Below the pieces are notes generated by a model that saw only the letters and a program-made list of their open reading frames with translations, had not been told where the DNA came from and ran no database searches. Position numbers and translations under genes: made by a program. A stretch of DNA of 61,202 nt, filler included, from Squatina squatina (Eukaryota), in the NCBI GenBank assembly GCA_031763465.1. It is 4 parts of 4 records of this genome, joined end to end, with 100 filler letters (N's around TTAATTAATTAA, not from the genome) between each part and the next. Parts side by side here need not be neighbours in the genome. Positions count along the whole stretch, not along the records: positions 42,483 to 61,202 come from JARFOE010000004.1; 3 more parts are not named here. One strand, written 5' to 3'. Positions 2,217 to 52,575 of this stretch are shown here, in pieces (the first letter of the stretch is position 1; each line of letters begins with the position of its first letter).

Positions 2217-5200
2217 GCGGTATGCTGGAGATTACTCCTAACTTTGTTTTTGACCCGGGCTAATCAGGGTTAATTAATGGCTTAGAACAGATACTGCACA
2301 CTCAGCAGTCTCTGGGTCTTTAGTTTTATTGGCTCCATGTCCTGTTGTTCTGTTTACTGGCAGAATTGATATGCTAATGATTTTACCCAGGCCAGAAAAA
2401 AACTAGAAGTTGATATGTATTCATTAAATGCTGAATTTATTGCTAATTATTGCTGGAAATATTTTGTTCACAGCCTGCTACAACTGGCCTTTGCTTGCTT
2501 CACTATTTTGTTATATTATTTTTGGTATTGATTATTGCCCTTGCCTTGCCAAAAACTATGAACGAACTTCATGTTTGGTTTTTATTTATTATTAATGCGA
2601 ATAATCATTACAGTCCCATTTCTCTCCCTAGTCATATGGCCCTCTAATCAATTCCTTAATCCCATAATGAAATACAAGCATATTGCTTGCATGTTTGGAG
2701 CTGATGTTTTTGGTGGTTACTTAACCTGACAAGAGAATTCAGTATATAGTCACGATTTGTTTATCAGGATTTTGTTAAATTTGCAACTGTGAATTTAACT
2801 GCAAATGAAAAATGAATTTGGACAACTACACACTAACACATCTCAATTCCTATTCTGACATTTACCAAAGAGATTGATCCCCAGTGTGACCTGTGGATTG
2901 ATAGTAATATATTCATAAAAATGCCAATAGAAATGGACTAGAAAAATGTATCTAATTCACACTATAATTATAGTTAATGTTTCCATGAATAGAATGTATC
3001 CTGTTGTCTATACATTATTTAGAAATTCAAAACAAAATCCATAAGCTAATTTATAAAGAAATTTGAAGCTGTGTTAATACTTGTGGCAGGCTCCATTTAA
3101 GTTATTATTTTACATATATTATATTCATAATCCTTGCCTCTCCCCCAGTTCTACAGCTTGCTGACATCTATCTTTTTAAACAGAGAAATGCAGGCGCTTT
3201 TTAGTCTGTGTCTATACAAGCCATACTTAGGCAAAAGTAAACAAGGCTTATATTACAGAGTCACATCTGCAAATGCAGACCATATTCCTGCCGTCTTGTT
3301 TATTCAACACAATTTACCTATGACAAATGTGGTNNNNNNNNNNNNNNNNNNNNNNNNNNNNNNNNNNNNNNNNNNNNNNNNNNNNNNNNNNNNNNNNNNN
3401 NNNNNNNNNNNNNNNNNNNNNNNNNNNNNNNNNTGGATTATGGAGTCGTGATTATAGTTTGGAGCGGTTCCTAGAACAACAGTACCTTCTGGTAAATTGA
3501 AAAAGAACAAAACCTAGTTAGAGGTTATTACCAGAAACTTTTCATGCTGCAGCTCCTTCAGGCTGTGTGATACTTATGTTCCTTGGAATAGTTATGAAGG
3601 CTATTTATACACCTGTTGTTTGTTTGCTACAGCAGTGGGCAAATCAGCTCCAGAGCATTTTGTTAGCTTATGGCAAAGCTCTGACATGGGAATGGTACCT
3701 CAAGTATTGCCCCAGGGTCAGGATAGTTGGTGTTTATTTCAACAGTGTTCAGCTCTGTAGCCTGTTTTGGGTGTAGTACAGATCTGAAGCAGAATGAACA
3801 ATTCCCACAGAATGAGTGATCATTTGGGAAATAACTCCATCAAACAGGGTATTTTTTTAATAAAAAAACAATAATCTGAAAGCATTGGAAGAAGAGTTGA
3901 CTTCAGTGGCTAGTCATGCCTTCTCAGCTTGAAGGCAGGCCGCGACAAAGACATTTGCTGGTGAATGAGGTGGAGCAGTATTGAAACGACAGCTTGTGTT
4001 CGAAGAGAAAATATTTCATTTTGTCTTATTTTTGCATGATTCAGGCAGGTTAAGCAACAAATCTGCAATTCTGGCTAAATATAACCCTTAAACAAATCCC
4101 ATANNNNNNNNNNNNNNNNNNNNNNNNNNNNNNNNNNNNNNNNNNNNNNNNNNNNNNNNNNNNNNNNNNNNNNNNNNNNNNNNNNNNNNNNNNNNNNNNN
4201 NNNNNNNNNNNNNNNNNNNNNNNNNNNNNNNNNNNNNNNNNNNNNNNNNNNNNNNNNNNNNNNNNNNNNNNNNNNNNNNNNNNNNNNNNNNNTTCCTAAG
4301 GTTCAAGAATACCGTTCTCTTTGTGTTTGTGTCCTCGTCTGCTAAGAATTTTTTTTTTAAATATTGGAATATTTAAGCTTAGGTGCTACAGTCTCTACAT
4401 TACTGCTTTGCACCTCTGAAGGTGGCCAGTCTAGGAATAACTGAAGAAAATCTGATCACGTTCAAATGCTTAAAATGTAATTTAACATAGATGGAATTGT
4501 TTCAAACAGTTATTTGAAGTAACTGAATTTGTTAAAAACAGGTTGAAATGAAGTGGCCTTGCAGGATCGCAATCAAGATATCAGCCTCTCCCCCATGTGG
4601 TTACGGGCTGGAGGCCCAGTGCTGGCTGACACCCAAATCTGCCAGCCACATGTGTGATCAGTTACATCAGCACTCAAGCATGTGAAAATGGGAACCTCAC
4701 AGCAAAGAACACAAAAGTAGATGATAAAGTAATTGTTAGCTGAAAAAAAATTAATTGCGAATTATACTTTTATGACTTTTTATATTGCCCGTTGGGCTTT
4801 TTAAATCAATTTGTGCCTTTTCATCACTACCTAGCAATGCTGGCTGTTCACTTTATAGGAACATGATTGACACGGAGTGTAGATGAGTCACTGATGGCTA
4901 AAAATAGGATGTATGATGTCACCATATCATTACCACATCATTTAAATATCTCCATCCATTTTAGAGTGGGCATTTCTGCTATCCTCTCGAAGAGGCAGCA
5001 GAAAATTGGGTGAGTGCATAACTGATCCCCGGCCACTGGATAATCACACGAAAACCAGCCTATTGAGTTCTCAGTATAAGTAGATTTTTTACCAAATTCT
5101 TAATTACGGTATCAAAATGTACATCTTGTTATAAGCAACTTTGCTTGTCTATCCCGATCTACGTGGAACAGGTTTTATCATAGTCGCATATGACTAATGC

Positions 5201-6419
5201 CAGCTATGTATTCTCAAATGGTCTTAATTGCTAGTTTATACATATTTTGAAAGTTCACTCGGTAGAGCTTGTAATATTCTATTTTTGAAATTCAGACTGG
5301 ATTTGGTGGAGGACATTGCTACATTCAATAGCATGTTTGGCAGACAGCTTGATGAGCAAATTAATATTCTGCAGTTACTTCAGAATCTCTCAAAACTTAC
5401 AACTGTAAATTAGCAGATTATACAAGATGGTATACACATTCGGAGAAACAAAAAACCAGAACTTTTAGTTTAGGAATAAGTACACAGCACATGGTTATCC
5501 TCAAGAAGCACCACCTTATAGCTCTTATTTCAATTTGTCTGACCCCCACATTCAAGCTCTCCTGGTTTGGATCTGAACAGACAGGAAGAAGAGTCAGTTA
5601 TTTAAAATTTCCTCTTTGCTAAATGAAAGGCAGAGGCAGTAGTAACAGCAAGTTCCGCCTGGATCAGTGTCAACTTGCAGCACAGAGTTAACAGCTGAAA
5701 CAAACATGTTCAGCAGGCTTAAATGTGTCCGTGGCACCTGTTGATCATTAATTTGGTGAAAATATCACATGTTGGAACTTAACCCATGAGGCTCAAAGCA
5801 ACCTAATAAATATTTTAATTTTTTTTTTACAGCAAAGTTGAATATAGAGAAGTTTAGAGTATAATCTGTTTATTAGATTAGGTATCAGAACTTGCCCACT
5901 TTAAATCAGAGAACAGAACCATATTTTGATTTAGGTTTTTCTGCTTTATATTCTGTTGTGATGCCACAGTTCCAATGAAAGAAATTAGATTACCAGTCAA
6001 GGCTTAGATAATTAGTCCAAAATTCCTCGGGATGCAATCCTTGACACTTATGCCCCATGTATTTGGAAGCACCGGTGCCTGTTCACCATTGGGGGGGGAT
6101 TAGGGGTGAGGAAAGAAGGTGGCCCCAGCCTACCACCAACTTTAGCCATGTCCCCTCTGTCCCACAGTTTAAAAGAACTGATGTAACAAAAAACACATTT
6201 TTTCTCCCCAGGCGACCAGGCTACTGCTCTGGCCTGGACCTCATCAGACGAGTCCACTTTCACCCATGTGCAGGCTGAAATGCTTCAATTTATTCTGTGT
6301 ACCAACCTCCAGAGATTTGGCAACTCCCAACTGAACTAGGCTAGCGAGAGACACGGTGTAGGGAGACCCTCCATCCCTGGCATTTGCTTTGGTGAAGGTG
6401 GGTAGAGGTTCTGCCCCTT

Positions 6420-6642
6420 TGTAAGAATCAGGCCAAAATCCATACTTTAAAACCATAAAACCAGAAACCAGCACAGCAAGAGCCAAATCAGTGGTTCAGG
6501 GACAGAATTAAAAACACAGAAGCAAGGCTGACAGGCTGGGGGTTTCTGTAGAGGCAACCTGAGCTAATACCTAGCTGGATAAAATCAAAAGGTCACTTGT
6601 TATGGTAATTGGTCCTCCCCCAGCCAAACGGGGCTGGGAGCA
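6420..6642 (+). mobile_element. LTR 5' (U3) end of the same ERV family as 44284-52575, cut by an assembly gap
   Basis: Starts TGTAAGAATCAGGCCAAAATC and follows the minus-strand LTR start TGTAAGAATCAGGCGAAAATC (52575 downward) for ~200 nt, e.g. AAAACACAGAA and AAAATCAAA..CACTTGT.ATGGTAATT. Confidence 0.8.
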
Positions 6643-7569
6643 NNNNNNNNNNNNNNNNNNNNNNNNNNNNNNNNNNNNNNNNNNNNNNNNNNNNNNNNNN
6701 NNNNNNNNNNNNNNNNNNNNNNNNNNNNNNNNNNNNNNNNNNCCGTGAGGAAAAACAAACATTTGAGATGCACTCCCACTGTAATACAAGAAAGGGGGCA
6801 ACATTCATTAAAAGAAAAACTTCATAGTTTCCATTGCTAGTGCAATATTCATACTGATTCAGCCAGGGAAATGTTAAAGAGACTTTTTCAAATACAAATT
6901 TATACAAACCATTCCCATGGTGTTGGGTGGGTTAGCATTAATAGAGCAGATGGTTACATATTTTTGTTTTGTTTCTGGAACTTTCCCATTTCTATTCACA
7001 TCACATTTTACCTTGACATTTTAAGTAGGTCCAGACTTAAACAAACCACCATTTTCTGCATGCCCACTGTAATCATTTTGTCACACAAGAAAATGCTTCT
7101 CTATTTGTAAATCATGATGTTACAATGCAACAACATCTCAATGCCTAGAATGAGGAATGGTCTTGCAAGTTTATCAAGCCCACTATCTAATGGACCACTC
7201 TTGCACATTAGCCTTTTCAAATCTAATGGTGCGATTCCTTTGTGCATTAAAAATCACAACCCTGATTGATCATCACTTTCCCCTAGATTGACATATATTC
7301 TTTGCATGAATTTGAGCAAGAAAATCTGTCGAGTTCCCTTTTGAAACAATCAACAGACTTCACATTCACTGAACTAAGTGACAACTTTTGTTCCACAGGT
7401 TAATAATAAGTTTTGAAGTGATTTTTTTTTTTTAACAAATAGGTCCTTAATTCTTAAAGCTAATCCTCTTGTCTTACATTCCTGGTTCCATTAAACAGCA
7501 CTTCTCAATGTTTTAAAATACTTCACTCACAAATCCTCTCACTTCATTTTCTTCAAAGGAATTATTTTC

Positions 7570-18238: not shown

Positions 18239-18338
18239 NNNNNNNNNNNNNNNNNNNNNNNNNNNNNNNNNNNNNNNNNNNNTTAATTAATTAANNNNNN
18301 NNNNNNNNNNNNNNNNNNNNNNNNNNNNNNNNNNNNNN
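18239..18338. other. Artificial scaffold-join linker
   Basis: 44 N + TTAATTAATTAA (stops in all six frames) + 44 N. Confidence 0.95.
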
Positions 18339-22600: not shown

Positions 22601-24032
22601 GAATCCATACATGCTGCAAGCGTTCGCATTTGAGATAGTTGTTCTCCAAAGCCTTTGTTCTGATTAATTACAACATTGAATTTATCCATAACATTTTCTA
22701 AACCTTCTGTCAGTTCTTTTTATGAAATCGGGGATTCTGCTCTTTGTGCTTTATCATCTCATGTCTGCCCAATGATCCCTTTAATTGCACGCACATTGTT
22801 TCATGCTCCCACAATGTCTCTGTCAATTGATGGAAATTTCATTCCGAATTGCGCTTCATAAATTACTGTTTAATTTTTCTGAGAAGAGCACAGTAAAAAT
22901 CTGCACACTTTTGGCTGCATAATTCGGAAGGCAAGAATGCAGATTAGGAAATAGTATACATGGCTTCATGGGTCCGGTTAATGGTAAGTCCGTTTACAGA
23001 TCCTTCCAGGAGATGGACACATTCAGTCTGATTTTCTCCTCGGTCTCACAGATCATAGTTTTGTTCGAGTCGATGTCTGACACTTGCGACATTATCCACC
23101 TCAACGAACGTGTCCAGTGGCCTCTGCTGACGAGGATAAAACTCCACAGTGTCGAGCAGAAATAATTTCCACCGCATTTACTGTGCAAAACACAGACTGC
23201 AGGGACAAGAGACTCAGGATACTCCTGAATCCCCGCCCCTGAAAACCAAGTTCAACTCTGATGAAGAGCAGAAATTCCATTGTAGCTATTTTGGAGAGCA
23301 CGGAATCTGCATAGCAGCATTTATCAATATTCAACATACATATTTTATAGAATTTATAACTCAGAAATAAGCCATTCAACCAAAGTTGTGTTTGCCGGTG
23401 ATTATGCTCCACACGAGCCTCCTCCCATCGTGTTTCATGTAATCCTATTAGCGTTGCATTCTATTCCGTTTTGTTTTCCCTCACGTGCTTGCCCTGAAAT
23501 ACTCCTTGTGATAGCGACGTCCACAGCGCCACCATTCCCTGGTAAATTAAGTTTCTCCTGAATTGCCCACTGAATTTATTTGTGATTGTCTTATATTTAT
23601 TGCATTTAGCTTCGGTCAAATTCAGTCTTGACGCTTAAAAAACATACAAATGCCCCACTGGATGTTTTTTTTAAACAGAAGCTATGGGTTAATTACTTTT
23701 TGGCTATGAAAACCATTGAGGGTGGCGGTGTTCAGTTCCAGAGTTCTTGAATGAAAGCATCAAAAAAATGATCTGAAAAATAATAGACATCATGATCATT
23801 TCCTGACTGCTTGGGGTGGTGCTCAGAACACACCATGTCTGTCCATGCAGCCCATGAGTCTATTAATGACGGATTAACTTGACTAACCTTGTCCTAAATA
23901 GAGCCTCCTGCAACATTTTAATATTGCAGAATCTTAGCTGTTATCTATGTAAATTTCATGAACTTTGACAAATTTTAACTGAAGTTGTTCGGATTATCAG
24001 AGTCTTCCCACATGGTTACCTCTGTCTACAAG

Positions 24033-24985
24033 AGGCACTGAAGGAGCACCTTACTGCCGGTGGGGTAGTACTGAGGGAGCGCTGGAATAATGGAGGGGTA
24101 GTACTGAGGGAGCGCTGGAATAATGGAGGGGTAGTACTGAGGGAGCGATGCACTGTCGGTGGGGTAGTACTGAGGGAGCGCTGCAATGATGGAGTGGTAG
24201 TACTGAGGGAGTGCTTCAATGATGGAGGGGTCGCACTGAGGGAGCGCTGCAATGATGGAGGGGTAGCACTGAGGGAGGGATGCACTGTCGGTGGGGTAGT
24301 ACTGAGGGAGCGATGCACTGTCGGTGGGGTAGTACTGAGGGAGCGCTGCACTGTCGGTGGGGTAGTACTAAGGGAGCGCTGCACTGTCGGTGGGGTAGTA
24401 CTGAGGGAGCGCTGCAATAATGGAGGGGTAGTACTGAAGGAGCGATGCACTGTCGGTGGGGTAATACTGGGGGAGCGCTGCACTGTCGGTGGGGTAGTAC
24501 TGAGGGAGCACTGCAATAATGGAGAGGTAGTACTGAGGGAGCGCTGCAATGTTGGAGGGGTAGTACTGAGGGAGCGCTGCACTGTCCGTGGGGTAGTACT
24601 GAGGGAGCATTGCACTGTCGGAGGGCGAGTACTGAGGGAGTGCTGCACTGTTGGTGGGGTAGTACTGAGGGAGCGCAGCACTCTCAGAGGAGCGGAAATG
24701 AAGGAGCGATGAATTGTCAGAGTAGCAGAACGGAGGGAGCGCTGCACTGTCAGAGTAGCAGTACAGGGGGAGCATTGTACTGTCGGAGGGGCAGTCCGGG
24801 TGGAGCGCCACACTGTCGTAGCGGAAGTACTGACGGAACATTGCACTATCGGAGGGGCAGTGCTGAGGAGTGCTGCACTCTCGGAGGGTCACTATTGAGA
24901 GAGCATTGAACCGTCGCAGGCGAAGTACTGAGGCAGCACTGCACTGTCTGAGCAGCGGAACTGAGGCGATGCTGCACTGCCGGAG
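24033..24985 (+). repeat. 33-bp minisatellite (~29 units) derived from a DeuSINE internal segment
   Basis: Units GTAGTACTGAGGGAGCGCTGCACTGTCGGTGGG and variant GTAGTACTGAGGGAGCGCTGCAATAATGGAGGG; runs directly into a SINE body at ~24985. Confidence 0.95.
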
Positions 24986-30260: not shown

Positions 30261-30360
30261 NNNNNNNNNNNNNNNNNNNNNNNNNNNNNNNNNNNNNNNN
30301 NNNNTTAATTAATTAANNNNNNNNNNNNNNNNNNNNNNNNNNNNNNNNNNNNNNNNNNNN
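30261..30360. other. Artificial scaffold-join linker
   Basis: 44 N + TTAATTAATTAA + 44 N. Confidence 0.95.
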
Positions 30361-37230: not shown

Positions 37231-37287
37231 AAGCAAGACACTTTCTGCATTCTCTCACAGGAATTAGGTTGCACAACTATGACATAC

Positions 37288-37640
37288 CATTCGAAAATCA
37301 TCCTCAAATTTGTAGGCACCACCTCCTGTGGCACACATAGTGGTGTGTAAACTAGAGAAATTTTTGTCTCTACCCATTTGGATGAATTTAGGCATGGAAT
37401 GCGTTGGAAAGCGAATAAAATGCAAGTTCCCTTTGCGTCCACACATGATCAAGTTCTTTAGCTCCAGGTGCACATCCCGGATCCCTGTTTTTCCATAAGC
37501 TATGTTAGAGGTCAGGTACTTCCGAATGCTCTTCAGGTTCTCCACTTCCTCCTGTTCTTCTTCAGCTGTGATGTCTTTTGGCTCAAAATACACAAGTTTG
37601 ACAAGGGTTCCACCAATATCCATTCCAAACCAAGGGAACG
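37288..37640 (-). CDS. PANK1: Pantothenate kinase 1, coding exon (353 bp)
   Basis: AG/GT bounded; [63 protein letters not shown]...[16 protein letters not shown], including the DIGGT ATP-binding motif. Confidence 0.97.
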
Positions 37641-38699
37641 CTAGGAGGGAGAAAGAAAGTCAGTATTATGTGCATCTGTGTCAGTTGTACATTGTTGTTT
37701 AATTTATGCTGTGAGTAGCATCAGACACTCAAAATCCATCAGACATTTTCAAATCTAAATCAGAAGCAATATCATCAATAAATATTTACTTTTCAACTGA
37801 TCAGTGGGAACGAAGTGTTTTTTTTTCATAAAACAGGAACCAATTCTTAAAGCATACAGGTCACTGTTGGAGAGTTACCATCATGTCTCGAAACTGGATT
37901 CATCAGTACCTGGTACAAAGGGAATCCACCATATTACATGCATATGCCATGACAAAAAATGCATCGTCATCTTCCAGATTCTTTTTCCTTCTTAAAACCG
38001 CAACGATCACCCTTTAAACATTTGTTGTATCCGAGTTCAGTAAATAAGTAATTGTTGTAAATATCTGACCTTTTATTAAAATAAACTATTTGTCTAACCT
38101 TTTGTTATTATGCCAACTAAAATTAAGCTGGGGCACTCCAGTGCAATGTTTTAGCTGACTGAAATGACCCCAAATATAGAAGCAGAATACTGTTTTGTGT
38201 CACAATATTTTGGGCAAATACTGAGAGATAAGCAAAGGTACATTGTAAAACTTTTAAAATTTATTTTTTTTGGGTCAATTTAAAAATTTAAATTGTGAAG
38301 CTTAACTCATTGGTCTTCACATTTCAAAATGGAAGTGGAGAAATCCGAGGGTGCAGTTTGCATGTTTGGCAGTCTTGGATTAAGTATTTTAGAATAGTTC
38401 AAACACGAGTAAATAACTGAAGATATCATTTTCGTTTAACTGGTGCATTCAAAAAGCTCAGATAAAAATCTTTAGTTCCCTCCAAAGTTTGGTTTTACAT
38501 TAGTTGCTTCTGACAATGACATTATGAACTTTGATTTTGACCAGAGAAGCTGGGATTGTTCTCCTTAGAGCAGAGAAGNNNNNNNNNNNNNNNNNNNNNN
38601 NNNNNNNNNNNNNNNNNNNNNNNNNNNNNNNNNNNNNNNNNNNNNNNNNNNNNNNNNNNNNNNNNNNNNNNNNNNNNNCTTGCCATTGGACCATGACCT

Positions 38700-42382: not shown

Positions 42383-42482
42383 NNNNNNNNNNNNNNNNNN
42401 NNNNNNNNNNNNNNNNNNNNNNNNNNTTAATTAATTAANNNNNNNNNNNNNNNNNNNNNNNNNNNNNNNNNNNNNNNNNNNN
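42383..42482. other. Artificial scaffold-join linker
   Basis: 44 N + TTAATTAATTAA + 44 N. Confidence 0.95.
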
Positions 42483-44283
42483 GGAAGTATCCCTGATTTC
42501 CCACATAGTGCAGGAGGAGCATACCACGGGGCTGAGCTGCGCTTCCATGACTTACCCTTGAATTAAATAAAATCCAATCCCCAATATAAGAAAATCTTAA
42601 TTTTCTAAACTGAACCCTTAACTTAAAGTACTGATGCAAATACAGTATCAAGATACAAGTACAGATGCAAGTATCAGCCAGGTCTCCCACACTTGCTCAT
42701 TATCCAATGGCATCTGCTGGAAAGTTGGTCCATGTAGACTACTTATAAATACAGGATTCAACTTAGCTTTGAGGCTGCCATGCTGCAGCAACCTGCCAAG
42801 ACATTGTCTCTCATACATAAAGAATGTCTACTTATGAGGTTGTGAAAGTCTGCTGGCACCTCTGGAATCATATCCCAACCTCAGCCTGCTCCCAGAAAGG
42901 AAGAGAGAACACTTGGAAAAAATATGTGCAATTATCACACCTCTGCAAGAACCATAGTTGGCCCCTAATGCAAACAGGTAATGAGGTACTTAACCACCCA
43001 TAAGTTAACAAACAAAAACTGCACAACAAGAAATGGGAACTATGTCACAGAGGTGAGGCTCAAGTTTATTTTGGTTACAAGACAGGCTGCAAGCCTTGGG
43101 GAACATTTTGCACAATCATAATTTTCGATCAATTAATAGAAAAGTACAGCTGTACTAGTCTGAGCTCATATATTCTGCCATCAGTAATCATGTGCCGTTA
43201 AGTATGTCAGCAAGCCTGCTGATAATGTCACAAAGCATTTTGTTTCTCCACAAAAATGATTAACCTAGACAATCAGGATTCTGAGAATGTACCATGCTGA
43301 GAGACTGAATGACTACAGTACATTCTGCCATGAAGGAAATTATATTTACCTGGGGCTGTGATAGAACTGTAGTTGCGCTTGACTCATGACAAGAACCAAC
43401 AGTCAATCAGGAATTTAGATGCACAGGGATCAAAATGGTCTGAATGTAGCTAAGTCTGCCATGGGGTCATCTCTGGAGATGACTCTGTGGTCAGGGCTGA
43501 TATATCTTGTGATGAGATTGCAGTTAAGCAGAGGGAAAGGTTGGCAGAGGTTATGGACATTCAGAAGGTATAGTTCCTCCATGCTTAGGACCTCTGGCTT
43601 CAGGGGATACATCGCAGATGCCAACAGAGTCGATATGACATGACAACATGTATTAGACCCCCACTCTGCAGCTCTTTGAGGCAGCACATCATGACCAGAA
43701 ATGTTATACAGGGAAAGAATAATGGAAGGGAAATCACGCTTTGCTGCACCTTCTGGTGGTCTATAACAGAATGGAATTGGCAAAGGCCTGGGAGCAGGTC
43801 TCCTGTTGTGTTTAGTACATCACGCTACAGGTGGGAAGTGAAACATGTTTTTCAGTACATTGGGATATTTGAAATGACACAGACATAGGCATGCAACTCA
43901 GATTTATAAAATGGGACAGGCTCAGAGCTGCCTGGCCTGTGAACTTCCCACCCATCAATGAACTTTGGCTCCAACCCTGCCTATAGCTCATAAAACTGAA
44001 TTCAAGCACATCCTTCACATTGTGCCATTTCTAGTCAGCAAAGTCCATGCACTTTTCATCCTATTGTTATTGGCCCAAGTGCTCTGCTCAATGAGAAAAA
44101 CTGGAATCCATTGACTATAGTGCAGTCGTTGTATGTTTGAGCACTGGCCACCCACATAAGGTCGTTGCCTAACTTATTCATTTNNNNNNNNNNNNNNNNN
44201 NNNNNNNNNNNNNNNNNNNNNNNNNNNNNNNNNNNNNNNNNNNNNNNNNNNNNNNNNNNNNNNNNNNNNNNNNNNNNNNNNNN

Positions 44284-45398
44284 TCGCAACTGGCCCTTGA
44301 GGTTACTTATTTGTCAATTAAGGGAGCATCGTCAAAACTATTTACAACAGACGTCCCGGTGTTGAACAGAGTGGCAGCATCGTTGATCAAGCCATGTTTC
44401 CTCCTCTCGGGTCCATTGGTCTCCTTGGGGTCGACCTGGGATGTTTTGAACTCCCCATAGTCGAGTTCAAAGAACTGCTGGTACATATCGTGGAGCAGTG
44501 CTGCGTATAAGCGTCCAGTCTTTTCGGGACACCAGGATGGTAACTGGACCTGGGTCATGTTCAATACCATTGTGGCCACTTCGTAATGGACCTTGTGGAA
44601 CATTACTTTTTGTGTTGGTATCAACACTCGACTGTTCTCGGGGCCGGAGGTGGTGCGGGGGCAGTGAGTCTCGTCATTCCTCACCGGTCGGGGAGTGAGG
44701 TGTCGTTCAATCTTCTGTGTCAGGATCTCAGTGGCATTTACTACCCCCAGGGGATTAAATGCAATGCATGTCATCTTACTCCTGTGCCAGCCCATATCGT
44801 TTCCCTCATCCTGCCACTGTCGGTGCAATGCTATGGAAACCATAATGGGACAAACTGGCAAGGACCCCCAAATGCATATGTAAGTCCCCTGTTCTTCTGT
44901 CTAACACTTATTCCAGCACAGTTGTGCTCCCTCCTAGTGTAATGGTCCGATAACTGTCATTCCCTAACATTTCCCAGGCTGCAGTCTTGTTTGCCTTATA
45001 GGCGCCCAGCTTTCGGAGCCACCACCATCTGTCCTGGCGAATGTCGCCGTTGCAGCACAGGCAGACTTTTCTGCCGTCGGCTACTATCAGCCTTCGCGCG
45101 ATCACTCGCACCCTGGGGCAGTTGACAGAGGCCTCCCTGAATGTGAACTAAATTGCACTACCCATAAAACTGGTGGAATTTGAGCCTACCCACCCGGCCA
45201 TCGTCCGCTATGGGCCAGTACGGTCTGTCTGGCGAGTCGCCCCGCACCTCCTGCAGTGACCATGGGGCCGTAACCTGCGCTGCAGCCGAATACCAGTGAA
45301 CTTTCGGTGTCGCCCCTTCGGGAATGTCCATAAAATGGGAAGTTGGTGAGGAAGATCCAGAGTGCTTTTATTGCTTTTTGTCGACTTGGTGTCTTCAT
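44284..45398 (-). pseudogene. env: ERV env (partial): signal-like leader, Ig-like segment, F2-like segment, furin site, fusion peptide, start of heptad repeat
   Basis: Acceptor TTTTTCTCTTTCTTGGTTATCCAG then AACC-ATG (45398) MKTPSRQKAIKALWIFLTNFPFYGHS; RRKH (44405-44394) then GLINDAATLFNTGTSVVNSFD; QISNLKGQLR after a frameshift. Confidence 0.75.
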
Positions 45399-45402
45399 GG
45401 TT

Positions 45403-45428
45403 CTGGATAACCAAGAAAGAGAAAAATG
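45403..45428 (-). promoter_or_regulatory. env splice acceptor
   Basis: Polypyrimidine tract + CAG ending at 45403, 4 nt before an ATG with A at -3. Confidence 0.7.
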
Positions 45429-45519
45429 TTGTCCTCGTGTCGGCTTCCACTAGAAGTGGGTGCCGTCCCAGCAGCACACCCACCAATGGAGGAAACTCCG
45501 TCCTCTGGTGCTCCCTTGC

Positions 45520-48145
45520 CTGCTCTCCCCCAAACAGCATTCCCTCCCTTAAGGTGAACTCGTCTCCCCCAAAGGTGCCTTGGCTCGCTGTCCTGCCTGC
45601 TTGGCTGAAATGGCTTCCTTAAACTGGGGTCTCCCTTTTGCAATGACCGGAGGTCTGTGGCTAAAATTATCCCTGGGGGCGGTACCTGCCCTTGCAGCAC
45701 GTCAATGGGGGCAGTGGTGGGGTCTGTGGCAGAAGGATCCCACTCCTCCCCCGTGCGTGCCCCTTCCTTTGCCAGGTCGTCGGCTCGGGCATTACCTTCC
45801 CACCTTGGCTCAAGTTTCGTGGGTGCCCTGACTTTGTGAATGTAATAACCCAGCCCTCCGTGTTCTACCTCCAGGATTTTCTTTAGGAGCGGGGATGTTG
45901 TTAGTGGTCCCACGTCCACGGACGTGAATCCCCGTCTACACCATAATGCCAGATACTCCGTGCAGGAGTTGCACGTAAACAGGGAGTCTGAGCAGCTGGT
46001 GCAGGGTGTTGGGAAAAGTTCACGGTGGGTGACCACGTACGCGACTGAGGCCAGCTCAGTGTGTTGAGCGCCCATCTGAGCTGGGAGTTTAATTGCCCTG
46101 GACACTCCGGTCTGAGGGTCATAAATTCCGCAGGCAGTGAGCCTCTTCCCATCCACTACGAAGCTCGACACATCGACGTATATGTCCCATACCCCGGGAC
46201 ATAATCCTGCTTTAAAACCCAGATCATGATTCCACACTCCCTTCACTGTACACGTGAGTGGGTCTCCTATGTACAACAAATTTAAAGCTAGCCGGGGTTC
46301 CGCGAGTACCTGGACTCGGATGAGGTATTGAGCCAAGAGCAGGATCCAGCTCGTTATGTGTGCACTGCTCACGGTACCATCCTTGATCCGCCCTTCCAAC
46401 AACATTGCAGTCCGAGTGTGGTTGGTGAGCAGGGTGATGGAGGAAAGGCCCGTGAATGGTTAAAAGTGCTTGACTGTCTAGTAAGTGGCTCGGAGGCGCC
46501 GTTCAAAGTTCGAGTAAGTCTTCTCGACTCCTGTGACAACCTAAGATGTGTATACGATCGGACTCAACTTGCTGTGGCGTTCCTGCATCAGCACCGGTCC
46601 TAAGCTGTCCTCACTTGCAACCGCCTCCAAGATGAACTCATCGTTCTCAGTAATGGCTCCCAGGGCTGGGGCGCTCTTCAGGTCGCGTTTCAATTGCTCG
46701 AACATGTCCTGGCAGGACATATCCCATTCCCAGGCGACACCTTTATGCAGAAGGCGGAGCAGGGGTGCGACTGTCGCCGCATAGCCCTCGATGAAGTCCC
46801 GGCATTACCCGGTCAGCCCCAGGAAGGACCTAATCCCTGGCACATCCCTGGGTACGGGCAACTGCTGTACCGTTTCCCGTCAGGTGTCGTCAATGGCTCT
46901 CGCCCCTCCCCGTAATGTCAGCCCCAGGAATTTCACCGCCCGCTGACCTACTTGGCCTTCTGAGGGTTCACGCTCAACCCACTCTGGTAAAGCAATTCCA
47001 GCAGCTCCTCCAGCAATCACACATGCTCCTCCTCATCGTCTGTGAACAACAGGCGATCATCCACATACTGCACCAGCTGAGCAGGCTTGCTGAACGGCTT
47101 TAACGCGTTCACCATACTCTGGTGAAATATGGACAGACTGTTGTGGAAGCCTAGTGGAAGGCAAGTCCACGTACACTGTTGGCCCTGGAAAGTAAACGCA
47201 AATTTGTACTGGTATTCTCGGCACAACGGGATGGACCAAAATCCCGTAGTGATATCCTGTACCGAGAAGACCGTGGCAGTGTTGGGGAGGGTCCCTATCA
47301 AATCGGCCAAGAGGGCCACGGTGGGGGCTCAAGCTGGGAGGTTCTTATTCAGGACTCGATAGTCCACGGTTGCTAACCACGAGCCGTGCGGTTTTCAGAC
47401 CGGCCACAGAGAGGAGTTGACGTGGGTCGCGATCGGACTGAGATCCCCCTGCCTGGTCAGGGACTCTGGGGCAATGGGCAAATCTGCTTTGGCCTCTCGG
47501 GGGGAAATATACTGCCGGATAGGTCGGGACATCGGGTCCCCCTCTATCCGGACCTCCACCTCGGTCATTTGCCCACAATCGTGCTTGTGTGTGGTGAATG
47601 CACCGAGGTGTCACCTGAGGACACTGTGGAACGCGGGCGGTGGGGGGCAGTCCATGATCATGGCTTCCAGTTTGTACTTGGTCTGGGGCTGCATCGTACA
47701 CACTAGCCCTTCCCCCCACCCCCTGTTCCCTTGGGATTACAGTCACTGTGCGATTCTTCCGTCCTGTCCTGCTGCCCTAAAGGCAGTTGTTCTGCAGGTG
47801 GAGTATGATCCAGTGGGCCAGCAGAAAATCGGCCCCGCTCACCCCTGACCTGCAGTGTCTCCACTGGACCAAGATGGTTTTCCACCTGTGTAATTCCCCT
47901 AACTTGATGCGCAGTGGCTTGGACACGACACCAGCCTGCTCGTCACCCGTGAACCCTGCCAAAAGCTACGGGGTCCCGCTCGACCGAGGGAAGTTCTCGG
48001 GGTCCAGATCGTGGATCACCATGCTCAATGCCGCGGTGTCGATCAGGTAATCCCCAATATGTCCATTTCCCTCCATCTCTACACAGGGGCGATCCCACCT
48101 GTCGTAGTAGATGTGGCAGAGCAGAACAGGCTTTGTTGAGCCCAG
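45520..48145 (-). pseudogene. pol: ERV pro-pol: protease, RT, tether, RNase H; integrase almost entirely deleted
   Basis: YLIDTAA (48049-48029) and GADFL; VDYRVLN, FWSIPL, YKFAFTFQGQQCTWTCLPLGFHNS, QYVDD (YVDD 47067-47056); VSSAHITSWILLL tether end; RNase H IYVDVSS / AQHTEL / SDSLF / GNARADDLAK. Confidence 0.93.
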
Positions 48146-50503
48146 TCACTGGGGTGGTGTCTGGGATGGAGAGTTTTGTGTGTGGGATGTGGTGGCTGGG
48201 CAAACGGTCACAATGGCGGCCTTTTCCTACCCAAAGCTTTCCTTCATGTCCAGCAGGATCTCGGCTATCCTCACCTGCTGATCCAGCGGTGGTACCCTGG
48301 GGATCTCTTTCTCCACCCTTTTACCTGAGGTTTTTCGGTTTGCATCTTTATTGGGTGGTGTCCCGGCATTCCAGCTGCATATGCCTGGGCTTGCCACACC
48401 TGAAGCACACCACGACCATCCCTGTCTTACCCTCCTGCCTCCATTCCCGTTTCTTTTCCACCCCTGTATACCGAATACAGGGGCGGGGATCGGGACCTGG
48501 CCGGCCTGTTGAGCTGTAGACACCGTCTCGACAACCACATCGCCTGTCGTTTGCGCTGATGTGGTGCTGCAGAGCGTGGGCTTTGGTTTCGGGGATGCGT
48601 AACCTTGGATAGGTTGGATGGTAAAGTGTAGGTTAGTTTGGGTTTCCTGGCTGTGTGACTACCTGTACTGGGTGAATCGGAGCCGCCGACACGTAGGTTG
48701 GTGCTGTGACTCCCTGCGGTGGGGGTTGTACTGCGCCTGGGATGCAATAGAGTGCCATCAGTGGGCCGGCCTGGCCAGGCATGTACACCGGAGATTGTGC
48801 GGCCCCTGGTACAGGCACGCCGGCTGCGGCCTGGGGTGGAATTCCTCCACCGTTTCCAAGCTCGGGCTTGGGAGTGGCATCAGTGATGGCAAGGGTTTGG
48901 CAGGCGAGTCCGGGTCTTCAGAGCACCTCCGCATCAGTGTGAGTGATGTTCGAGGGTTAAAACCATGTTTGTGCTGACTTGGAGTGCTCAGGCAAACATT
49001 GAGACACGAGCATCCGGAGCCACTGGCTTCGGTCAGCTGGTCTTAGGTCTTGCCACCTCGGATTGTGTCCGCCGAAGCACTGTGAGTACACAGCCCACAA
49101 GCAGCTCGCAAAAATATCTGGGGTTTCAGTGCGCATTTAGTGAGTGGCATCGACTTGGGCCAATGGGCTGCCAATGTCTAAGCCCATGGCTCTTCGAATC
49201 TGTGCGTGGAGATCAAGAGTGTGAACTCCAGGTGCACGGATATGTGGAAGTAGTCGCTGGTGGATCGTGTCCTCCATAGAGAGCCGCAACATTTTGTTGT
49301 GCTCCTCTGTATTGCACGAATGGACATCAGCCAGCTGACTAATGCGGTCAAAATGTACCAGCAGGTCTCCGTTCAACTGGAGCAGCGGGGTCTTGACCAG
49401 TATAGCTTGCAACTGACTGGCGCTGTGGGGAATATGACATTCTCCCAGTAACGGTCCTCTCCCTCCTGCAAGCCCCGGCGGACCATACTGCCTCTGGGTT
49501 ATCGGGCACATGGGCGCCGCTTCGTCTGGGCTCATATCATACTCCGGGGATTCGTCTGAATCTGACTCCGGATTCGGCAGGCCCCAGCCAACATCACTGC
49601 GGGCCTGTCCCACTATTCGCTCCGGACTCCCCCTTGGTTCCGCTGCCCATCTCTCTGTTTCTCCGGGCTCCGGATCACCCTGGGTTTGGCCGCCCATCTC
49701 GCTAGTTGATTTTCCCATACCCTCTTGGCCTGGGGAGCAATCCTGGAATGCGGGGGCCACAGACCGGTTTAAGGTCTGTGACCACCGCTGGGATTTGTGG
49801 GCAATTCAACCACCGGCTTTCACCCCGCCGGTGGTATCCTCGCTGTCGCTGAGCTCATCCGTGTACCCGAGCAGCAGTGCCGCCGGTGCCTTGAGGCAAA
49901 CTATGCCTCTGGCTGTTGACAGGGCGAACTTCAGCTCCCAGTTCTAAGCCATACAATCGCCATGATCCGCAGCCTCGCGTTTTTGCACCTGCATCACGTG
50001 GTTGGCCCCGCCTTATGTCTTGGAGTTGGACTTCCAGCTGAGACACTTTTTTCATGAGCTCCAGATTATCCGCCGTTCATGCCTTCAACTCTTCCTTGCC
50101 CTCTGCCAGTTCAGTGTGGAGCCGGGTAGTTTCTGCCCGCGACTCGAAGGCAAATTGCCTGAGGTCCTGCTCAGCATTATGGAACTTCTCCAAACACTGG
50201 CTACAGACTACATCTCTGGCGATGACCCTGCTGTGTGCGCTGGTCTTCCTCCGTCAGCTCTTCCAGTCACTCTCGGAGCACCTGGTTCTGCATAAAGAGG
50301 CACAGCAGCCACACAGCCTTCCTGCGGGGGCACTTGTGTTCCTGCGAACTCATCCACCGGGCGGCCCCTAACCTTGGGTCCTCAAACCGGCAGATGGTTT
50401 GGAACCACGTACTTACCATGTTAACTTTTGTGTAGGCGTAATCTAGCATACCCTGTTCCAAATCCTTCAGGAGCGTTTGCTCGTCTACGACATCAACATC
50501 CAT
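48146..50503 (-). pseudogene. gag: ERV gag (frameshifted)
   Basis: ATG at 50503 just after the PBS; coiled-coil-like N-terminal region; helical capsid-like region within the 49760-49137 ORF; Pro/Gln-rich linker; CFRCGKPRHMQLEC zinc knuckle at 48407-48366; TGA at 48148-48146. Confidence 0.85.
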
Positions 50504-50517
50504 TTTCTTGCCTTGAG

Positions 50518-50535
50518 GTCCCAGTTGGGTCGCCA
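50518..50535 (-). promoter_or_regulatory. Primer binding site, tRNA-Arg-like
   Basis: TGGCGACCCAACTGGGAC, 9 nt after the LTR-terminal CA; 16/18 match to the complement of a vertebrate tRNA-Arg(CCG) 3' end as recalled (TGGCGACCCAGATGGGAC). Confidence 0.75.
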
Positions 50536-50544
50536 AAATTTTTA

Positions 50545-52575
50545 TGTCGCATATTCGCTAAACCTGAAGTCTTCCCGTGTGATCGACAGCTGCCCCGACA
50601 CTCATAACTTTTTTTGTATCAGCAGACAGCCGTCAGCTATCTCGTGGTTCATGTGACAGGTAATTAAAGGCAAATGGATGTTTTGGGAAAGTATTGCAGA
50701 GGAACACACACACACAGTGTTTCAGGCTTCAAAAGTGAGTAGGATCTTTATTATCTTTAGCAACACTTCACTCGACACACAATAGGTTGAAAAGGACTGA
50801 GGAAGACCAGCGCTTTCCAATCCCAAGTTCGAATTAATGTGCCCCAATTTAGATAGGCCATCTGAATGGCCCCTAAATGATAGCCCACTAAATCTACACT
50901 CTAAGAGACTGGCCTTTGAGTCCCCTGTTTGGACCTCTGACTGTTCGGGCGAGTATAGACCCACGTGTTGTATGCTCACCTATCTGAAGTTACTGCGCAG
51001 TCGGGTGCCTCATGGATCTCACTGATGGCGTCCTAGCACTGGGGTGGAGATCTCGCACCTCAATGTCTTCTTCGATGGCCCGGCAAGAATCTTTACCGAC
51101 CACAGTCTTTCACACTTCTGTTGAGCGGTACGCTCATTCAGGAGATTGTCCTTCTATCTGTTTAGGTGTCTCAAGGAAAACGACCCCACTACCTCACCAC
51201 GATGTTTTCTGTAGGTCACTGGTCTCCCTCCTGATGATTGCTCTCTGTGTGTCTCGACATTGCTAGTGAAGCGGAGCTAGACGAAGCTCAAACTAAGCTA
51301 AAACGACCGAACCTGAAACGAATCTCATCGAATCGAATCGAATCTTGAATCTCCTCGAATCTTGAACCTTCTGTTGCCTCTTGCTGAGAGCCAGTTATAC
51401 TGTTGAATGTGATTTCAAATCGCGCCAAAGTCTGTCTGGCCTGCACTGAAAAATTAAATGCACTTTTCTCAAATTCCTGAGCAAATACCAGCTCATCCTC
51501 GTGCCTTGAGGTCTGGCTATCCCTCGGGGAGGAGAATTGCTCTCCGTGGGGTTTCTGAGCCCCTCACCTGGGATTTGTTTTCTCATTGAATAGTTTTTCG
51601 ATGGCCGGCTGTCTGGCCCATCGACTTGGATTGCTGTATTTGACACCTTTGTTGTCTGACCTCGCTTGGAACAAAGCCCTTTCTGTATTTTGGATGGGCT
51701 TGATTGCTTCAAAGCCCTTGTGGTTTTGAGAACCAAATTGTCTCCTTTAACCGTTTTCCTAATGAATGGGCCGGGGATACTGGCCCATGTCAATGATGTG
51801 TATTTTGCCAAATGTCCTCTCAACTAGCTTATCGAGGTTAATGGTCCGGGTGTCTGGCCCATGTGTATTCTTCTCCTGGTCTGATTAAAGTCCGTATGGG
51901 TTGGGGTGTCTGGTCCATGTCAAACAAAAGTATCTGTTATTCATCTATTCTTCTCCTCAAGGTCTTCTCATTGATCCCTTTTAGCAGTTAAACTGCAGCT
52001 CATCTCATTCCAGAACATATACCAGTGGTTCTGTTGTTATTTAAAAATCAAGGTGCCGCCAGCTCACGTAGCTGGACTGTCTAATTACCATTTGTGTTGT
52101 CTCTTTGATTGACAGGGTTTTGCAGTAATTCACTGACTGCCAGTTGGTGGTCTGTGTTTTAAATTCCTGGCGCATGTCCAACATTTTGTTCCTTATTGCG
52201 TGGTCCCAGTTTTATGATCTGAAAAACCCACCATGTTGTCCGATTCTTCCACTGGGTTTTCATTGTCTGTTCATCCGGATTTCAATCAATTTAAAACTGT
52301 CATTGTGTTTCTCCAGACTGCAAAACGGCAGTATGTGTTTTCTGAATAATGTCTTCTCAGTCTCACATGGCTGGAGATGATCTAATTACCATCACAAGTG
52401 TCTTTGATTTTTTTGTTCACCTGGTTGTCAGTTTACAGTACACTTGCAGTAAACTTGTCCCTGCTATTGTGGTTTCTGTGTTTTCGATTTTGGTCCATGG
52501 CCCAGTAGTTTGTCTCTTACTGTGCGGGTTTCGGTTATTATGATTTAAAATACAGATTTTCGCCTGATTCTTACA
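50545..52575 (-). mobile_element. 5' LTR (~2.03 kb)
   Basis: TGT...ACA termini; TATAA at 51399-51395; AATAAA at 50752-50747 followed by a GT-rich tract; outer boundary supported by the homologous LTR start at 6420 and an abrupt switch to L2 sequence at 52576. Confidence 0.8.

Follow-up and report, generated by a model that had tools for sequence, protein, structure and literature searches.

A decayed SnRV-clade endogenous retrovirus of Squatina squatina with lokiretrovirus-like motifs in a probable F-type envelope fragment

F-related envelope (Env) proteins have been published for lokiretroviruses (PMC7947760), foamy viruses (PMC11468914) and errantiviruses (PMC13524379), and a fold survey exists (PMC12583693), as far as the accessible parts of these papers reach; for lokiretrovirus Env, the accessible text of PMC7947760 gives a match to the profile PF00523 at E 2.2e-7. 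As such proteins are on record for lokiretroviruses and foamy viruses, an F-like Env is less surprising than the first-pass annotation of the DNA studied here implied. SnRV-clade endogenous retroviruses (ERVs) have been described in the elephant shark, and Han 2015 groups CmiERV lineage I with SnRV (PMC4422223). Because Env similarity between lokiretroviruses and canonical retroviruses was not detectable, Wang and Han prefer independent Env gains for the two, according to the accessible part of PMC9040795. The portions available to us of PMC8922424, PMC12440569, PMC11089739, PMC10435555, PMC6001957, PMC11521997 and PMC13709493, a set that stands apart from the original SnRV paper, the cartilaginous-fish foamy paper and Calcraft et al. 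2024, hold no statement of an F-like Env in the SnRV clade. This class of fusogen is already on record for retroviruses, and its presence in the SnRV clade beside a gamma-type Env appears to be undescribed.

We analysed a window, meaning the whole stretch of 61,202 nucleotides of Squatina squatina DNA (GCA_031763465.1) joined from four parts, and found that its Env-like peptides form the 3' end of a decayed provirus on the minus strand at about 51300-44284, in the part from JARFOE010000004.1. The env end is truncated by a 100-N assembly gap (44283-44184). The Retroviridae-like order PBS, gag-PR-RT-tether-RH-IN-env is present, with the IN core deleted, and all features given below lie on the minus strand. 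A probable 5' LTR with leader (50536-51300, outer boundary approximate, multi-copy cover to 51300, where the aligned stretch ends) adjoins the 5' side of a PBS-like 18-mer at 50518-50535, which occurs once in the window and is presumably of the tRNA-Lys type; blastn detected no partner LTR within the window, where the 3' LTR is likewise absent. Translations of the broken gag (48350-50500) show a helical, coiled-coil-like N-terminal region, a middle that by its position would be the capsid-like region and one CCHC zinc knuckle at 48407, while a Pfam search of gag gave zero matches. Downstream lie a protease remnant (47780-48055, tblastn match to residues 9-102 of protein P0001, 47%), reverse transcriptase (RT) fingers and palm of SnRV-clade type (46954-47715, RVT_1 at E 9e-22, 4 stops in 254 codons) and a stretch with RT thumb, tether (a degenerate RNase H) and second RNase H (45617-46969, 5 stops in 451 codons). 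In the latter, Pfam identified RT_RNaseH_2 (E 9.5e-19) and RNase_H (E 1.2e-7), and the top PDB match of the second RNase H was a foamy-virus RNase H. Integrase is reduced to its start at 45493-45582, about 30 N-terminal residues (residues 829-860 of P0001 match, 861-1145 do not), the core having been deleted from the present copy. At 45490-45520, where that core is missing, contigs of related copies diverge from the window sequence as loose ends and partial pieces. Over the whole of pol we counted 10 stops in 797 codons. In four runs from one study, 3,582 to 7,542 contigs per run, most of them 80-95% similar, align to 42483-51300, and contigs of related copies cover all bins from 44247 to 51300, hence the provirus belongs to a multi-copy family. 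The element is one truncated, dead member of this endogenous retrovirus family and unable to make virus.

Elsewhere in the window, a pantothenate kinase exon, which we take to be PANK1-like, was found at 37267-37659 on the minus strand (Pfam Fumble, E 8.9e-21). The provirus shares the strand of this exon and lies 7-14 kb upstream of it, perhaps within intron 1, with filler (42383-42482) between the two, so that the parts are not necessarily neighbours. The N gaps at 18239-18338, 30261-30360 and 42383-42482 contain a central TTAATTAATTAA spacer, in our assumption an assembly linker and not biology. Furthermore, the window holds LINE fragments, which together with the exon mark the host as a vertebrate, and a GC-rich tandem array of 33-base units at 23938-24897 with at least 21 overlapping registers, and a search of Rfam yielded zero matches. 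Repeats of apparent elasmobranch type, along with the nearest published relative of the element, suggest cartilaginous fish as the host class.

All RT comparisons were pairwise, without a tree, and the lokiretrovirus and CmiERV counts were made by hand from supplement text. The window RT scored 169 bits with SnRV, 116 with prototype foamy virus, 59 with MLV and 53 with Ty3. Identity amounted to 67/138 with SnRV (a hand count reproduced computationally), 74/138 with elephant-shark CmiERV lineage I and 47/138 with the lokiretrovirus Loki-Sri, the palm motif of which also differs (the last two from the accessible supplements). The SnRV reference was the 10,688-base record L005; its RT agrees with the SnRV row in the part of the PMC7947760 alignment at hand, and its length with that of the SnRV GenBank genome as given in the available text of PMC12193657. 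By sequence, the RT of the element is thus of the SnRV-clade type, nearer SnRV than the other groups compared. A foamy virus or foamy-like ERV was rejected, the RT being nearer SnRV and the gag carrying the CCHC knuckle at 48407; such a knuckle argues against a foamy virus, since foamy gag has none according to the accessible part of PMC5210030.

In the env fragment, a single stop-free frame (44900-44310) holds GPENSRV from 44645, a cysteine at 44531, RRKH at 44405-44394, GLINDA from 44393 and TLFNTG from 44372, with a spacing of 18 residues from FFELD to RRKH, and the ORF terminates at a stop at 44309-44307. The peptides quoted in the first-pass annotation all lie on the minus strand, with the exception in frame of QISNLKGQLR, which is off-frame from the rest. 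The F2-like block (44406-44663) comprises a cysteine, the GP motif, a strand, a second cysteine, an amphipathic helix and a polar loop. Hydrophobic moments agree with its original description as strand, cysteine and amphipathic helix: within the env ORF the helical moment peaks in the 18-mer from 44525, and the 9-mers at 44636 and 44594 rank first and third for the strand moment. The basic motif RRKH at the cleavage-site position (44394-44405) is non-canonical in the present copy and fails the R-X-[KR]-R pattern. It is followed by a mildly hydrophobic putative fusion peptide (44334-44393, mean Kyte-Doolittle 0.56 over 20 residues) and by QISNLKGQLR (44284-44313) as a possible start of HRA. The proposed HRA after the fusion peptide is represented by about 10 candidate residues, which stand in a different frame and end at the 100-N gap; the layout of short N-subunit (strand, cysteine, helix), basic site, fusion peptide and possible HRA is found in this order. 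Contig depth in the four runs of the one study falls at 44316-44323, and among 32 pieces listed of 182, all 10 that cross 44300-44345 carry one gap there, so the frame break is likely a lesion of the present copy. The Cys-rich core, HRB and TM region would lie beyond the 100-N gap and are absent from the fragment.

Upstream of the F2-like block, a candidate Ig-like N-terminal module of Env (44820-45093, V-x-L-x-C, Trp and G-x-Y-x-C pattern, read with X at breaks) is interrupted near 44910 by a frameshift and a stop. It had zero Pfam or PDB matches and matched the SnRV Env N-terminus weakly (4/500 shuffles equal, with a segment picked by eye). Two comparable x-x-Y-x-C motifs are present near the N-terminus of SnRV Env. 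A C-x-x-C lies at 45063, upstream of the cleavage site. On the far side of the gap, the DNA at 42483-44183 had been read by eye as a continuation of F1, which we rejected: motif chains built from lokiretrovirus F1 came 30th, 59th and 37th among 82 bins, SnRV Env gives no match, and CpG o/e is 0.14 versus 0.60-0.64 in the element. Related copies provide almost no cover of this DNA, a hole that by itself proves nothing. One contig of run X2, of low depth, matches 43867-44144 and differs from it at 2 of 278 bases.

Direct searches for F-type relatives gave nothing to support them. The Fusion_gly profile check proposed earlier returned no match for the env fragment, in which about one quarter of the domain is present, nor did any other relevant Pfam family; the same holds for SnRV Env. 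Sequence searches of PDB found no relevant match for the env fragment or SnRV Env, and matches to the designed beta-propeller Tako8 were discarded as repeat artefacts. The proposed fold search was likewise without a match, starting from single-sequence models of the env fragment and the SnRV Env core with pLDDT 41 and 37, values too poor for the models to refute the F type. A search with SnRV Env recovered its self match Q88282, besides two F0 entries (E 0.31 and 1.2) that we discounted. Homologues of the env ORF numbered 0/58 among longer and 0/40 among near-length candidates, with none in viral or metagenome contigs, and two tail-protein matches in phage records were set aside as chance. Queries with P0001 or alignment A2 located no related loci. 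Nothing was found in favour of a relation to pneumoviruses in particular or of direct capture from a negative-strand virus. As for the opposite type, no ISD occurs in 42483-46000, and the TM half of env is outside the visible sequence.

The fragment was also compared with residue sets taken from 15 lokiretrovirus Env proteins (16 of 23 published sequences covered, one without the region, from the accessible supplement). At 44375, within the putative fusion peptide, 11 columns of a 14-column block fall within these sets, a match equalled by one unrelated site and exceeded by none among about 122,000, and never reached in 837,000 shuffled positions. The chain of three blocks, which adds the GP block and the basic site, scored 33.0 bits, the best of 121,560 positions (next 19.9), with a maximum of 25.6 bits in 40 shuffles, for motif sets and spacing tolerances that were picked after the match was known and with window spacings near the short edge. 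Judged on these motifs, the similarity of env to lokiretrovirus Env exceeds chance, and no such result was obtained with any F profile or structure. Against the same sets, the fusion-peptide block gave 18.5 bits in the window and 4.3 bits in SnRV Env.

With SnRV Env the relation is seen in global alignment. Segment 44663-44328 aligned best with SnRV Env residues 519-647 among 3,786 windows (51.5, next 27.5), 0/1,000 shuffles were equal, and the alignment pairs both cysteines and the basic site of the two proteins. In the reverse slide of the SnRV segment over the window (4-codon step), env came second of 30,432 positions, with 42.5 versus 45.5 at an unrelated site. Local alignment of the two proteins was non-significant (best BLAST E 0.19; 60/500 and 69/500 shuffles equal). 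Neither ISD nor CX6CC occurs in SnRV Env itself; its cleavage site and TM stand 355 residues apart, and a low-confidence prediction gives this protein the order long helix, strand-rich region, long helix. Since CmiERV lineage I has a gamma-type Env and SnRV Env lacks ISD and CX6CC, the SnRV clade holds two envelope types.

We consider the fragment probably to be the 5' third of the env of a dead ERV with an SnRV-clade RT, encoding an F-type class I Env inherited within the clade. Such an Env would carry the F type beyond lokiretroviruses and foamy viruses to a third deep branch of retroviruses. The explanation builds on what was observed of the element: its proviral anatomy and decay, its membership of a multi-copy family, its RT affinity and the motif matches. 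That the Env is F-type at all, whatever its route, seems to us quite likely; the first-pass claim of a class I F-type fusogen in place of a gamma-type SU-TM is favoured indirectly by the lokiretrovirus motif order and spacing and by the anchored SnRV Env match, and a direct F match to go with them was not obtained. It is improbable, in our estimate, that env encodes an orthoretroviral SU-TM of divergent sequence, such as a gamma-type protein whose SU is short, and that its F-like look is generic to cleaved class I proteins. Zero direct F matches in any library, the C-x-x-C upstream of the site, a TM half hidden from view and the gamma-type Env of the nearest published pol relative all speak for such a protein, and they are opposed by a lokiretrovirus Env motif chain far over its null and by the fact that the best-matching Env, that of SnRV, is without gamma-type marks.

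The route by which the Env was acquired is a separate matter. The gap between 18.5 and 4.3 bits in the fusion-peptide block, together with the Env exchange evidenced in the clade by CmiERV lineage I, would suit an SnRV-clade pol that acquired separately, with a lokiretrovirus or a negative-strand RNA virus as donor, an F-like env other than the gene of SnRV Env. We regard this as unlikely, because the anchored SnRV Env match spans both cysteines and the cleavage site, an N-terminal arm with G-x-Y-x-C occurs in the element and in SnRV Env, and the 15 lokiretrovirus Env proteins, in their published form at hand, mostly begin the core directly after the signal peptide. That the element is itself a true lokiretrovirus was our initial reading, based on the dual RNase H and the foamy-like second RNase H, and the helical gag leader and the Env motif match agree with it. 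It would extend the lineage to cartilaginous fish and be new, given that 0/6 chondrichthyan genomes were positive in Wang and Han (PMC7947760, accessible part). We dropped it after the RT comparison, in which palm motifs and identity alike point to the SnRV type (47/138 vs 67/138 and 74/138); moreover, dual RNase H and coiled-coil gag are non-diagnostic since SnRV has both, and this origin is now very improbable.

Returning to a clade-inherited F-type Env, its fold, cleavage, fusion mechanism and the role of its arm can be proposed as follows. If it works as F and foamy Env do (PMC11468914, accessible part), cleavage of the Env precursor at the basic motif would yield a short F2-like fragment that stays attached to a subunit of F1 type. 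Receptor binding may fall to the upstream arm, which is perhaps Ig-like. The fusion peptide, once released, would enter the target membrane, and HRA and HRB would refold into a six-helix bundle. A broader and more tentative idea, to which we give somewhat less than even chances, is that Env of the SnRV branch as a whole is F-type, bears Ig-like receptor arms and has kept the lokiretrovirus motifs, the F type being ancestral and the gamma type later. If true, F-type Env would be present on three deep branches (lokiretroviruses, foamy viruses and SnRV) as the ancestral retroviral fusogen, and the gamma type would have replaced it at a later stage, a change caught under way within the clade in cartilaginous fish. 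The present copy is a dead fragment and contributes little apart from the motif link. Nevertheless, an SnRV-clade element with lokiretrovirus Env motifs beside a gamma-type pol relative bears on the question of Env origin, and that same-clade relative shows Env exchange within one clade. Furthermore, SnRV is culturable with a molecular clone, according to the accessible part of PMC12193657, and the F fold is therefore a claim that can be tested on a natural protein.

Among the known systems, foamy Env and the F proteins of paramyxo- and pneumoviruses (PMC11468914, accessible part; PF00523) share with the element the proposed fold class, with its short N-subunit of strand and helix, fusion peptide and HRA; sequence and fold searches were without a match to them, and the gag CCHC is unlike foamy viruses. 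Lokiretrovirus Env is similar in the GP motif, the short pre-cleavage block (84 residues in the element, about 91-92 in lokiretroviruses by hand count), the basic site and the conserved block after the fusion peptide, whereas the element differs by its RT lineage, a fusion peptide about 6 residues shorter, an extra cysteine in the F2-like block and the N-terminal arm. CmiERV lineage I has the highest RT identity, the H-K-H-D-C-G motif before RT and membership of the SnRV clade in common with the element, in contrast to its Env (scaffold 2), which is gamma-type with ISD and CX6CC as judged by eye from the accessible supplement of PMC4422223. In comparison with SnRV (clade Huo, class III-related; L005), the element is endogenous and dead, its Env identity is too low for local alignment, and both the pre-cleavage arm (about 170 residues visible, start approximate, versus about 520 in SnRV) and the Cys-to-site block (90 versus 107 residues) are shorter. 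Nevertheless, the two share the closest RT among SnRV, foamy virus, MLV and Ty3, the dual RNase H, a CCHC gag with a coiled-coil region, an N-terminal Env arm with G-x-Y-x-C and an alignable block from cysteine to cleavage site, in a virus whose Env carries no ISD or CX6CC.
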